A stretch of DNA of 64,000 bases from Archaeoglobus sp. JdFR-37. GTDB taxonomy: Archaea; Halobacteriota; Archaeoglobi; Archaeoglobales; Archaeoglobaceae. Below, piece by piece: positions 57,510-62,281 of this stretch. The stretch's first letter is position 1. The number at the start of each line of letters is the position of its first letter. The notes beneath the pieces were generated by a model. That model was not told the origin of the DNA. It saw nothing but the letters and a program-made list of their open reading frames with translations, and searched no databases. The translations under genes were made by a program, and so were the position numbers. The stretch spans positions 1 to 64,000 of the forward strand of contig MTMY01000003.1 in assembly GCA_002010215.1 (NCBI GenBank). The letters are read 5' to 3'.

Positions 57510-57701
57510 TCACTTATGCGAATCTCTGTGCCTTTCCCCTTCTTCTCCTTCTATCATCTCTCTGTATTCACCCTCAGTCATCTCAAGCACGTAGCTTCCC
57601 ACATAACCGCACTTCTTGCAGTAGTATTTGCCAGTATATCCGCCAGCATCAAGCTCAATTTCGGTGGAATTGCAAACTGGACAGACCAGGATTCTTCTCA
57701 T
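57510..57701 (-). CDS. Small zinc-finger protein
   Basis: CPVC...CKKCGY. Confidence 0.75.
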   Translation of the reverse strand: MRRILVCPVCNSTEIELDAGGYTGKYYCKKCGYVGSYVLEMTEGEYREMIEGEEGERHRDSHK

Positions 57702-57780
57702 GCTTACTAAATTTTATAATTTTGTATTAAACCTTTCCGGTATCAAGAAAATCATATTAAGTGTTAATGGATGTTAACAG

Positions 57781-57812
57781 TTATCAAAAATTTGATAAGT
57801 AAATTTTATATA
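57781..57812 (+). promoter_or_regulatory. Inverted repeat TTATCAAA-N2-TTTGATAA followed by BRE/TATA (TTTATATA)
   Basis: Palindrome 57781-57798, TATA 57805-57812, directly upstream of the peptide gene. Confidence 0.6.
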
Positions 57813-57844
57813 TTTGCTCCACAACTAATCAGTGGGTGATATGC

Positions 57845-57907
57845 ATGAAGGTGAAAAAAGTTGAGAAGAGAGTGGTCGGAATCTGCAAGTGCAATGTTTC
57901 GTGCTGA
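57845..57907 (+). CDS. Putative RiPP precursor peptide MKVKKVEKRVVGICKCNVSC
   Basis: GGTGA RBS 5 nt upstream; basic leader plus CxCxxxC C-terminus; upstream of the rSAM/SPASM gene. Confidence 0.65.
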   Translation: MKVKKVEKRVVGICKCNVSC

Positions 57908-57940
57908 AGGTCGCATGATGACAAGAGAGTGTTGATTACC

Positions 57941-58129
57941 ATGACAGGAACCAACCATATTGAGCTGATTTGTTATCACTGCGAGTTCTATAAACCGAGT
58001 GATGTGGGGCTGGAGTGTGCAGCCTTTAAAATACTAAGACATCTTATTGAAACTGGGAAGATTACCGAGGAGGACGTGAAACTTGCCGCATCTACGTCTT
58101 GCGGACAGAGTGTTGTTAAGAGTGTTTGA
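57941..58129 (+). CDS. Small Cys-motif accessory protein
   Basis: ICYHCEFYKPSDVGLECAAF; overlaps the rSAM start. Confidence 0.65.
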   Translation: MTGTNHIELICYHCEFYKPSDVGLECAAFKILRHLIETGKITEEDVKLAASTSCGQSVVKSV

Positions 58130-59207
58130 TGGGCCCTACGCCTACAACGCTGCAAACAATGAGCTTTACGAACTGGATGATGAAGCTCTTGATTTTTTGA
58201 AGAGTTGTGATGGAAGGTTTGTTGAAATCGGTAAAGTAGATAAAGATTTTCTCAATTTTTTGATTTCTGAAGGGCTCTTAGTTGAGAGAGGCGAGAGGCG
58301 GGATATTGAAGTAATCTCTGCTGAAGAGCCGTCGCTTCGCTATTTGCTTGTAAATGTAACCTGGCTCTGCAATTTGAAGTGTGAACACTGCTATGTACAT
58401 CAGAGAAGGGAATTTATGAATTTTGAGACGTTTAAAAAGACTGTTGACGATTTTTACGCTATTGGTGGTTTGAAGCTGATGATTTCTGGAGGAGAGCCAC
58501 TTCTCCACCCAAAGATATGGAGTTTTCTGGAGTATGCAAGAAAGAAGCCTTTCAGGATTGTTCTGCTCACCAACGGCCTTTTGATTGGGGAAAAAGAAGC
58601 TGAGAGGCTGAAAGAGCTTGTAGATGAAGTTCAGGTCAGCATTGATGGCATTGAGGGTCATGAAAGGCTGAGGGGTGTGGAGTTCGAAGCAGCAATGAAG
58701 GCTGTGAAAACGCTTGTAAATGCCGGAGTTGACGTTTCCGTCTCCACTATGGTCACAAAATACAACCTAGGAGAATTCGAGAAACTTAGCACCATGCTTT
58801 CAGAATGCGGCGTTATAAGATGGGCAATAGACTATCCAACGACTCTAGAGAATGTTGTCCCTGATTTTAATATTGCGGCTGAAATAATGTCAAAATACGG
58901 GTTTGGGGATCTGGGACATGAGGGTAGTGGCGGTTTTGCATGTGGTGCACATTTCGCATCCGTTTCCCCTTCTGGAATGGTTTCCAAATGTGGATTCTTT
59001 GAGGACGAGGCCGTTGGATCTGTTGGAGATGGACTGAAGACATGCTGGGAAAGGTTGAAAGAGAAATACATCTGGACAATTGATGAACTGCAGTGCCAGT
59101 GCGAGTTCAGGCAGGAGTGCAGAGGGGGATGCAGGTATAGAGCTCTGGTTTACTCAGGTAACTTGTTTGGCGAAGACCCAGTAATGTGCCGGATTTTTGG
59201 GAAATAA
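58083..59207 (+). CDS. Radical SAM/SPASM enzyme with PqqD/RRE-like N-terminus
   Basis: CNLKCEHC, SGGEP; SPASM CGA..V.P.G.VSKC and CQC....CRGGCR...DPVMC; N-terminal AYN..NNELYELDDEALDFL; TTG start after GAGGAGG. Confidence 0.88.
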   Translation: MPHLRLADRVLLRVFDGPYAYNAANNELYELDDEALDFLKSCDGRFVEIGKVDKDFLNFLISEGLLVERGERRDIEVISAEEPSLRYLLVNVTWLCNLKCEHCYVHQRREFMNFETFKKTVDDFYAIGGLKLMISGGEPLLHPKIWSFLEYARKKPFRIVLLTNGLLIGEKEAERLKELVDEVQVSIDGIEGHERLRGVEFEAAMKAVKTLVNAGVDVSVSTMVTKYNLGEFEKLSTMLSECGVIRWAIDYPTTLENVVPDFNIAAEIMSKYGFGDLGHEGSGGFACGAHFASVSPSGMVSKCGFFEDEAVGSVGDGLKTCWERLKEKYIWTIDELQCQCEFRQECRGGCRYRALVYSGNLFGEDPVMCRIFGK

Positions 59208-60625: not shown

Positions 60626-62281
60626 TTAAAGTGCAATTGAAAGCCAGAGCTCCGGATTTTTGAACTGGTTGCCAAGAACTTTTTTCAGCTCTTCAATACT
60701 CCTGAAAGGTCTTTCAGCCACAATCTTTGCCGCCAGACTTCTCCCTATTCCCGGTACTGCCTCCAACTGTTTCAGAGTTGCTCTGTTAACGTCAAGTGGC
60801 GCCTCCACTGCAGTAATGGAGCGTTGACCATAATCGACGACCCTAGCGTCCAGCCAGGTGTTTCTGTCATATTCACCAATAAGGCCTATGAGAAGGGGAT
60901 AGGTTGCAAGCTGTCTTGCAAAGGTTATTTTACCCTCTTTAACCTCGCACCTGAGGGATGTAATTCTTCTACCGACAGGGACAATTTTCTTCAGCATCTC
61001 TGTGTCTATATCCCTCCTTACCCTCTCCTTGAACCTTCTGAAGTACTTCTTATGTCTCCTTACGTTTTTATCTCCAAAACTCTCCATGGGCGTGCCTTTT
61101 AAAATCTTGACCTGCCTTATGTTTATCCTCCTGAGCAGAAGCCCCCTCTCCATTACCTCCTCCAGAAACCGGAAGTTTTTCTCGAAGGTCTCTTTTGTCT
61201 CGCCTTTCAGACCTATGACGAAATTGATGCCCGGAAGGAGATACGGCAGCCCATTATGGCCGATATATCTGCCGTATTTGTTTACGAGCTCAATGGCCAT
61301 CATAACCTCATCAGGCATAGCTGCCAAGTTGTTTGCTTCTACAACCCCCTCATCAGCACTTTCAAGGCCCATTGCTGCCACGTTGCCTGGTGATTGATAC
61401 ATCACGATGGTTTTGATAACTTCAGCACTCGCCTCCGGATACTCAGCGATGGTTTTGGGATTGACGTTATCTAAATGCAGCGTTTTGATATTCGGGCAGC
61501 GTCTCCAAACTTCTCGGTGGAAGGCAAGCATAAATTCTGGATCAGGCTTTGGAAACTCCTTTGAGAAGTCTCCACCGTAGGTCAGGAAGTCAGTCTGGTT
61601 TCCCAACCTGAAGTGGCGTATCCCGTTTCTGTAAAGGCTCTCTATCTCATCAATCACCGCTTTACCATCTCTCATTTGTGGAACGCTGTGGATTCTCTCG
61701 ATGCAGAAGCTACATCCCCGCCAGTAGCAGCCCTTGTAGGTTTCAATCTCGCAGATCAGGTTTGGAAATTCAGGATGCTGCCTGACAACTTCACTTCCGA
61801 GAACTGCGAAGCGGTTTACGAAGTTTCTTGTAGGGCTGGACGATTCAGATTCTATTTCCCTGTCCTTTTCTCCGGCAATCCTGCAGAGCAGACGGAAGAG
61901 ATGATATTCAAAGGGGAATGGGAGGACTTCATAGTCGAGAGTTTCAAGCTCTCTCATTTCTGTTTCGAGAACGATGGGCCCAACTAGAATCTTCTTTTCA
62001 GCCCTTATGTTCAGTCTGCCCAGTTCTGTTAGAGAAAGAGGTTTACCGCCCAGATACTTGCCAGGAACGGCAATTCCCGCTATGATAATTGCTATATCTA
62101 CCCTGTCGAAATAGGCTTTCGCCTCTCTGCTCCTCCTGAAGTGGTCTATAGTGGTGTAGTATGCAGGAATGCCGAGGTCTTTCAGCATCCCGTAGATGTA
62201 GCGCGGATAAGGGGAGATGTAGGGAGGAACGCCCAGACACGAGGGTTCATCAACGTAGCCATCCAAGATTGCCGCCTTCAT
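60626..62281 (-). CDS. Radical SAM protein with TRAM-like and C-terminal helix-hairpin-helix domains (COG1031-type)
   Basis: DGYVDEP..LGVPPY, GCYWRGCSFC, RRINIRQV, LDVN.AT..QLEAVPGIG. Confidence 0.85.
   Translation of the reverse strand: MKAAILDGYVDEPSCLGVPPYISPYPRYIYGMLKDLGIPAYYTTIDHFRRSREAKAYFDRVDIAIIIAGIAVPGKYLGGKPLSLTELGRLNIRAEKKILVGPIVLETEMRELETLDYEVLPFPFEYHLFRLLCRIAGEKDREIESESSSPTRNFVNRFAVLGSEVVRQHPEFPNLICEIETYKGCYWRGCSFCIERIHSVPQMRDGKAVIDEIESLYRNGIRHFRLGNQTDFLTYGGDFSKEFPKPDPEFMLAFHREVWRRCPNIKTLHLDNVNPKTIAEYPEASAEVIKTIVMYQSPGNVAAMGLESADEGVVEANNLAAMPDEVMMAIELVNKYGRYIGHNGLPYLLPGINFVIGLKGETKETFEKNFRFLEEVMERGLLLRRINIRQVKILKGTPMESFGDKNVRRHKKYFRRFKERVRRDIDTEMLKKIVPVGRRITSLRCEVKEGKITFARQLATYPLLIGLIGEYDRNTWLDARVVDYGQRSITAVEAPLDVNRATLKQLEAVPGIGRSLAAKIVAERPFRSIEELKKVLGNQFKNPELWLSIAL

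Follow-up and report, generated by a model that had tools for sequence, protein, structure and literature searches.

A conserved 20-residue cysteine peptide, an accessory cysteine protein and a radical SAM/SPASM enzyme: a candidate peptide-maturation system of anaerobes with some extra precursor copies at metal genes

Organisation of the locus

The window, that is, the whole stretch of 64,000 nucleotides analysed here (positions 1 to 64,000 of contig MTMY01000003.1 of Archaeoglobus sp. JdFR-37), carries three consecutive forward-strand genes whose products may constitute a system for the maturation of a ribosomally synthesised peptide with post-translational modifications (a RiPP). The first is an open reading frame (ORF) at 57845-57907 (+), recognised by sequence and conservation, whose putative product, MKVKKVEKRVVGICKCNVSC, is a precursor peptide of 20 amino acids with a basic, alternating-hydrophobic leader (residues ~1-12) followed by a C-K-C-x-x-S-C core. 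An accessory Cys protein of 62 amino acids is encoded at 57941-58129 (+; alternative GTG start at 57929). Its ORF overlaps by 47 nt that of a 374-residue enzyme (58083-59207, +), which combines an N-terminal domain resembling a RiPP recognition element (RRE) with a radical S-adenosylmethionine (SAM) core and a SPASM domain, and which belongs to a family without a model. A preliminary description of this DNA had listed a TATA box, a GGTGA ribosome-binding site, the peptide ORF, the 62-residue Cys protein and the overlapping radical SAM gene, and each of these was recovered at the position it had given.

The precursor peptide gene and its conservation

An alignment of 50 peptide copies from archaea and bacteria yields the consensus M-K-I-x-K-V-x-K-x3-G-T-C-K-C-x-x-S-C, and a GGTG(A) is kept before the start codon in most copies. 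The filter that yielded 118 distinct peptide genes fixes their Cys columns. Of these genes, 116 have a Lys between the first two Cys and 108 a Ser before the last one, encoded by TCN as well as AGY, and two core residues are free to vary. The stop codon is TAA in 68, TGA in 31 and TAG in 19. The Lys, the Ser with its two codon classes and the three stops together amount to a protein-coding signature. Run on the whole 1.97-Mb genome of the strain (G000), the peptide motif caller produced three matches, all of them true family members; a loose DNA pattern used alone was unspecific, matching in 47 of 61 genomes of the window's family. Judged by its sequence, the micro-ORF is a real, conserved gene that annotation had missed. 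The peptide has no signal sequence, and its profile found no match among PDB sequences. In the window the TGA shares its frame with the accessory ORF, and selenocysteine recoding or stop read-through at this codon was considered; it was rejected on the use of TAA, TGA and TAG alike and on the variable frame.

Enzyme homologues were collected with an alignment of 40 enzymes; from 399 loci in GTDB genomes, the best 80 were retained. The motif caller placed a peptide within 6 kb of the enzyme at 48 of these 80 loci, and at 39 of the 61 having at least 1 kb on both flanks. In relatives, the peptide lies upstream of the enzyme orthologue at 13 of 17 loci; of the other four, one lacks upstream sequence, one has the peptide on a different contig and two have the accessory gene only, a distant paralogue (L018) standing outside this count. 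An upstream position, which the preliminary description had called common for such peptides, is not required here: some copies lie downstream of the enzyme or diverge from it, others are at distant places in the genome, and several per genome are frequent. Two copies share a single locus at L055, L077 and L181, those of L077 being identical and 1.4 kb apart, and at L142:3663-4015 a second peptide and accessory copy is followed by just a short fragment of the enzyme gene.

Co-inheritance of the three genes

Three samples of genomes were used to follow the peptide, the accessory protein and the enzyme. In the first, comprising 61 genomes of the window's family, the profiles of all three matched the identical 21 genomes and none of the remaining 40. 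The second consisted of 50 distant enzyme-positive genomes, drawn from the 80 loci and picked to cover most of those without a nearby peptide; a peptide was present somewhere in the genome in 47. The third, 151 genomes from the phylum of one Nitrospirota locus (in which kin are not independent), gave on a first pass 67 genomes with the enzyme, 58 with the peptide and 57 with both. A looser search was then applied to the enzyme-only genomes, leaving out the 83 with neither gene, and all 10 apparent enzyme-only genomes were found to carry a divergent peptide elsewhere (two by a looser threshold, eight by pattern). The "enzyme-only" clade that these 10 had seemed to form was consequently dropped, its divergent peptides having been missed. 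After this follow-up, the peptide is present in 67 of 67 enzyme-positive genomes of the phylum sample, dispersed genes included, and a single genome has a peptide without an enzyme. In the clade with dispersed genes, the enzyme, the peptide and the accessory protein are encoded at three separate loci, the accessory gene being at the third locus in five of five tested. Judged by eye, the accessory gene of this clade is translationally coupled to a cutA-like gene (L246-L250, ~1190-1810).

On these sequence comparisons, the 20-residue ORF is almost certainly a real gene, and the peptide, the accessory protein and the enzyme one functional unit. The proposal of a RiPP-maturation system thus fares well, with the peptide accompanying homologous enzymes both at the locus (48 of 80) and in the genome (47 of 50). 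Its description as archaeal has to be widened: the 80 loci come from Archaeoglobi (which provide the closest named enzyme homologues), Ca. Methanoperedens, Hydrothermarchaeota and Asgard archaea, and equally from the bacterial groups Nitrospirota, Desulfuromonas, Chloroflexota, Actinomycetota/Thermoleophilia and Syntrophaceae.

The enzyme

The radical SAM core of the enzyme matches PF04055 at 78.9 bits, and the SPASM model TIGR04085 is passed at 37.7 bits (cut-off 27), in agreement with the motifs read from the letters alone. The three Cys of the CxxxCxxC motif (C96, C100 and C103; 58368-58391, +) are invariant in 40 homologues, as are the seven of the SPASM domain (287, 303, 338, 340, 346, 350 and 369; 58941-59189, +), which are spaced 287-x15-303 and 338-x-340-x5-346-x3-350-x18-369. 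By spacing, three of these Cys would ligate auxiliary cluster I and four cluster II. An open site on auxiliary cluster I, which in CteB reportedly binds the substrate thiolate, would be compatible with thioether formation without proving it. The available text of the report on CrpC, an archaeal enzyme that forms thioethers, describes the same seven-Cys spacing, likewise with three ligands for cluster I and four for cluster II (PMC13692751). The window enzyme reaches no NCBIfam equivalog cut-off (best 108 of 500 bits), and a Methanoperedens homologue likewise stays below every one; the models matched below cut-off include StsB (90.9 of 625 bits), AlbA (71.5 of 850), SbtM (58.5 of 350), PqqE and MftC.

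The AlphaFold2 model of the enzyme has a predicted local distance difference test score (pLDDT) of 92.5. Its N-terminal domain (residues 1-75; 58083-58307, +) is predicted at a pLDDT of 84-95 as three strands followed by helices. CteB, SkfB and SuiB occupy the top ranks of a Foldseek search. In a wider structural search with the whole-enzyme model, SuiB (Z 26.9, root-mean-square deviation 3.9, 342 residues aligned, model residues 4-374) and SkfB (Z 26.5, deviation 4.7, 319 aligned, model residues 8-352) are the two rows whose alignment spans the N-terminal domain plus the core. The Atlas gave a PqqD-containing cluster (0.89, 25% of members), which is a lead only. The PqqD/RRE character ascribed to the N-terminus in the preliminary description is therefore supported by the predicted fold and its superposition on SuiB and SkfB, and not by sequence profiles (0 of 16).

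The accessory protein

The accessory protein shows a C-x2-C-x-F-Y-K...E-C motif followed by two helices, and 820 homologues share its three invariant Cys. Its gene is found at 63 of the 80 enzyme loci and, in most archaea, is the gene whose translation is coupled to that of the enzyme; the forms from Asgard archaea, Nitrospirota and Desulfuromonas are tandem-doubled or duplicated. The protein is predicted to fold in part, around a three-Cys site that is fixed, and its N-terminus does not resemble a leader. No Pfam, NCBIfam or Atlas family matches it, and its best structural match has a Z of 3.0, which is no demonstration of a new fold.

At eight loci (L005-L009, L124, L134 and L136), the accessory gene lacks a canonical start after the peptide stop and the +1 frame is open through the peptide gene. 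The accessory frame there often runs from a TTG located 47 nt before the end of the peptide stop, and peptide codons 2-3 supply a GGTGA. From sequence, this arrangement would represent either overlapping genes or a frameshift. A programmed +1 frameshift into the accessory gene was set aside, an in-frame ATG, GTG or TTG being present inside the peptide gene in each case.

Comparison with known systems

SkfB, CteB/SCIFF, AlbA, StsB, PapB and CrpC (TIGR04463) share with the window enzyme the RRE-like, radical SAM and SPASM architecture and a Cys-containing substrate encoded nearby. The top structural matches, SuiB, SkfB and CteB, are RiPP maturases, the last two of the sacti- and ranthipeptide kind. 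Nevertheless, the window enzyme passes none of the AlbA, StsB, SCIFF and TIGR04463 models, and the system differs from the sacti- and ranthipeptide ones in its 20-residue precursor without an acidic acceptor, the lack of a protease or exporter, and the additional Cys accessory protein. In the CrpC system, moreover, the substrate CrpA is a large repeat protein.

In SbtA/SbtM (TIGR04081/TIGR04082), likewise a system of anaerobes, a small Cys peptide is paired with a radical SAM/SPASM enzyme, and we take the Ser-Cys dyad at the last Cys to be common to the window peptide and the SbtA motif. SbtM provides an O2-independent route to thiooxazole. The window enzyme, however, is shorter than SbtM and scores only 58.5 of the 350 bits required, a single one of 50 peptides touches TIGR04081 (E 0.13), and the peptide has neither selenocysteine recoding nor a signal peptide. 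The archaeal pairs TIGR04083 (with TIGR04165) and TIGR04084 of Haft also comprise SPASM enzymes for which small Cys peptides are the presumed substrates. TIGR04083 and TIGR04084 are absent from the 25 best whole-protein matches of the window enzyme and hence score under 58 bits, against cut-offs of 300 and 225.

As far as the available text of the reports goes, bufferins and captophorins are Cys RiPPs carrying 5-thiooxazoles made by MNIO (DUF692) enzymes and protect against copper (PMC11626156, PMC13097082). As Cys-rich ribosomal peptides tied to copper stress, they are possible functional analogues of the window peptide. Bufferins, though, use an MNIO enzyme, a partner protein and Sec export, none of which occurs in the recurrent clusters of 98 loci (whole genomes were not searched for MNIO). 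The methanobactin precursor MbnA is described, in the part of the source available, as a peptide of 23-35 residues with a Lys/Arg-rich leader and a short Cys core that binds copper once modified (PMC3621798). Here, by comparison, no MbnA model match was found among 50 peptides, MbnB/C, a transporter and an uptake receptor are absent, and the role would be detoxification rather than uptake.

Model searches accordingly gave no grounds for placing the system in SbtA/SbtM, MbnA, SCIFF or TIGR04083/04084. There is no library model for the enzyme, the peptide or the accessory protein. No description of the system was found in the open-access literature (supplements and subscription-journal radical SAM RiPP atlases lay outside the search), and the available text of PMC12710340, PMC13635244 and PMC10989515 does not mention it. 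The enzyme family may be listed in published radical SAM RiPP atlases without study. The system is real, widespread and apparently undescribed.

Extra peptide copies and metal genes

The Archaeoglobus genome holds one enzyme gene, one accessory gene and three peptide genes, two of which are unannotated paralogues recovered by the motif caller. One of these (the C10 copy; G000:C10:23744-23812, L099:3745-3813) directly follows merA, whose product scores 571 bits with the MerA model TIGR02053 (cut-off 454), and is itself followed by rhodanese and thioredoxin-like genes. The other (the C12 copy; G000:C12:17034-17102, L100:4035-4103) lies beside copR/copA: it is convergent with the gene for the only archaeal TRASH regulator of the genome, which is in turn divergent from that of a Cu-type P1B ATPase carrying two HMA domains.

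The C12 promoter contains a perfect CopR box, TTNNCAWWWTGNNAA, directly 5' of the transcription factor B recognition element (BRE) and TATA box, which is also where the box sits in Pyrococcus according to the available text of PMC7830388. Six perfect sites occur in the genome, and 10 of 200 shuffles of the 9-kb region contained a match. The copA promoter has a CopR box with two mismatches, sharing 12 of 15 bases with the C12 element (the pattern was derived from these two sites), and an orthologue of the C12 copy (L146) has one with a single mismatch.

In relatives, stand-alone copies adjoin CopA/CopR, CadA/ArsR, or DUF411 with a CCxHH membrane protein, and bacterial ones adjoin YHS/HMBD-type P1B ATPases and YHS-fused reductases. 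Eight of 56 stand-alone copies lie at most 2 kb from a P1B, HMA or MerA gene, against 1.5% of positions, and with DUF411 and CCxHH added as markers the count becomes 15 of 56 against 2.2%, both backgrounds being fractions of positions in the Archaeoglobus genome only and the markers having been partly picked after some loci were known. The 56 exclude L136 and L142 (both still adjoin the accessory gene), L217 (a degenerate copy, though next to a P1B ATPase) and L225 (truncated). In a set of unlinked copies fetched later, four of 10 are within 4 kb of P1B/HMA/MerA-type markers. The enrichment gives genomic support to the guess, made from the letters alone, that the product might be intracellular and metal-related. 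Furthermore, of 19 stand-alone copies adjacent to a marker, 18 have a His after the second Cys, compared with 27 of 47 others (p 0.003, ignoring kinship). Other neighbours of peptide copies, not quantified, include genes for superoxide dismutase, rubrerythrin/ferritin-like proteins, MsrB, CMD/AhpD, rhodanese and thioredoxin.

A loose regular expression for YHS/TRASH (23 of 60 against a 9% background) was noisy and was discarded. An A-C-C-x-H-H membrane family was noticed in metal islands of archaea and bacteria (L132:4539-5072, L185:319-753, L191:2828-3319 and L182:4671-5258), its L132 member having no Pfam or NCBIfam match.

Proposed function and alternatives

A radical SAM RiPP reading of the locus is well supported. 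As to function, an explanation that we regard as evenly poised between right and wrong is that of a three-gene RiPP system of anaerobes, producing a small, unexported, Cys-modified peptide for soft-metal (Cu, Hg, Cd) and thiol/redox stress. A cytoplasmic location is suggested by the missing signal sequence and by the neighbourhood clustering, in which no protease or exporter is conserved among the recurrent neighbours of 98 loci; the preliminary description had already remarked that none is adjacent. Going by the predicted fold, the basic leader very probably binds the RRE-like domain as an extra strand, with the C-K-C-x-x-S-C core entering the barrel. There, auxiliary cluster I with its three Cys would be bound by a core Cys thiolate, and a hydrogen would be abstracted by the 5'-deoxyadenosyl radical. 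Thioether formation, closing one or two rings onto the near-invariant Ser or Lys, is the most likely outcome, with about an even chance of being the correct one; an oxidation of Cys that retains the thiol, as in a 5-thiooxazole, is less likely, and some other product less likely still. The accessory protein would be a required partner of the enzyme, a putative metal or Fe-S binder through its three invariant Cys. From the genomic context, each genome's single enzyme would serve its one to three precursor copies in trans, Cu(I)/Hg(II) may be bound in the cytoplasm by those Cys that remain or are modified, together with the His of many copies, and the extra copies may have been placed under metal-responsive control.

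Several points weigh against this explanation. Forty-one of the 56 stand-alone copies lie away from every metal marker tested, only two of 48 enzyme-linked copies lie near one (a further linked locus, L101, has CopA and CopZ), and the window copy itself lies between ribA/B and cdc6 without a metal gene or a CopR box. The enrichment rests on markers chosen partly after the fact, a single-genome background and kin that are not independent, and the His association weakens to p = 0.085 when canonical markers only are used. A perfect CopR box occurs in just one of 120 peptide upstream regions, and a one-mismatch box in seven of 120, a weak signal given 178 such sites in the genome. As regards the chemistry, the core offers no Asp/Glu acceptor, and thioethers would consume metal-binding thiols. 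None of 16 N-terminal domains matches Pfam PqqD and no PDB sequence match was obtained, SbtM (58.5 bits) stands no nearer to the enzyme than do many other SPASM families, and the analogy with bufferins is strained in that these are Sec-exported and the window peptide has no signal sequence.

A first rival is a radical SAM RiPP with sacti- or ranthipeptide-like rings, as the preliminary description had proposed, and with a general intracellular role, for example as a regulator or redox/sulfur peptide, with the metal-island copies representing secondary recruitment. We consider this possible though doubtful. Most copies, that of the window included, have no metal gene nearby, enzyme-linked promoters have another conserved element in common, and many contexts consist of oxidative-stress or housekeeping genes; on the other hand, the roughly tenfold enrichment of stand-alone copies at P1B/HMA/MerA genes spans several unrelated lineages and recurs in the held-out set, and one copy has a CopR box.

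Two further explanations appear improbable to a similar degree. The peptide could be the precursor of a small-molecule cofactor, as are PqqA and MftA, its core being excised for client oxidoreductases. This would suit the tiny precursor, the absence of an exporter, the retention of dispersed genes, the PqqE and MftC models among the sub-cut-off matches, and the YHS-fused and other oxidoreductases beside some copies, but no peptidase or second tailoring enzyme is conserved at the 98 loci, no single client family recurs and two core residues vary freely. Alternatively, the substrate could be the accessory Cys protein, with the 20-mer acting unmodified as a micro-metallothionein, or else as a free leader activating the RRE. 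QhpD is said to modify QhpC. Protein substrates of RRE-SPASM enzymes exist, since CrpC modifies CrpA according to the available text of PMC13692751; the accessory gene is coupled to the enzyme in most archaea and present at 63 of 80 loci, and an unmodified three-Cys peptide could bind metal itself. Yet the accessory protein is predicted to be partly folded around its fixed three-Cys site, with no leader-like N-terminus, and an unmodified metallothionein would not be limited to enzyme-positive genomes (the peptide is in 0 of 40 enzyme-negative family genomes). Finally, a chance or purely regulatory leader ORF, as the first position of the window copy in a probable operon might suggest, is largely refuted and scarcely credible in view of protein-level conservation in two domains of life, retention independent of position, and stand-alone copies with their own promoters.

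A more specific and rather speculative form of the metal-stress explanation, which we think unlikely at present, would make the product an O2-independent, cytoplasmic counterpart of captophorins and methanobactin, common to anaerobes of both archaea and bacteria: an archaeal RiPP metallophore chelating Cu(I)/Hg(II) through thiol-retaining heterocycles or a Cys-Lys/Cys-Ser link. One RRE-radical SAM enzyme, in a housekeeping role and joined by a new partner protein with three Cys, would then serve dispersed 20-mers, of which the His-containing copies would be wired into CopR, MerA and P1B-ATPase islands. To our knowledge, described copper-binding RiPPs depend on non-heme iron oxidative enzymes, and we know of few archaeal RiPPs with a known role. 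The family is common among the sampled anaerobes (21 of 61 genomes of the window's family and 67 of the 151 from one bacterial phylum) and invisible to gene callers and family libraries. Its product makes a good candidate for a modified peptide, so far undescribed, that would assist oxygen-avoiding cells in handling toxic metals, and since the 20-residue substrate can be synthesised, direct tests of both the chemistry and the metal hypothesis are possible. The system may also illustrate how RiPP precursor genes leave their cluster and are re-wired to stress regulons, copies that cluster-based mining would miss.

Promoter elements and flanking genes

The window peptide gene is preceded by a Shine-Dalgarno sequence, GGTGA (57835-57839, +), 5 nt 5' of its ATG. 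In nine Nitrospirota loci (L079, L090, L093, L095, L176, L251, L252, L254 and L255), a short shared hairpin, seen without a shuffle control, lies over the peptide Shine-Dalgarno, and from its sequence might exert translational control of the peptide gene.

The window locus is flanked by a divergent zinc-ribbon gene with ribA/B and by a convergent cdc6-like gene. The zinc-ribbon protein has 63 amino acids (57510-57701, -), matches PF08271 at the cut-off and is encoded upstream of ribA/B, a synteny kept in close relatives only. At 60626-62281 (-) lies the gene for another radical SAM protein, unrelated to the first, which ends in a helix-hairpin-helix domain and has no family above cut-off.

A TATA-like box, TTTATATA, with a purine-rich BRE upstream, is located at 57805-57812 (+), in the same position as in relatives. 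Just 5' of the BRE is a putative operator region (57772-57798, +) consisting of TGTTAA, 18 nt and TT(G/A)ATAA, the second half of which falls within an 8-bp inverted repeat (57781-57798, +). The region contains no CopR box, its best match having two mismatches. Judged by eye, the TGTTAA and TT(G/A)ATAA pair, with its 18-nt spacing, is also present in the enzyme-linked promoters of several relatives.

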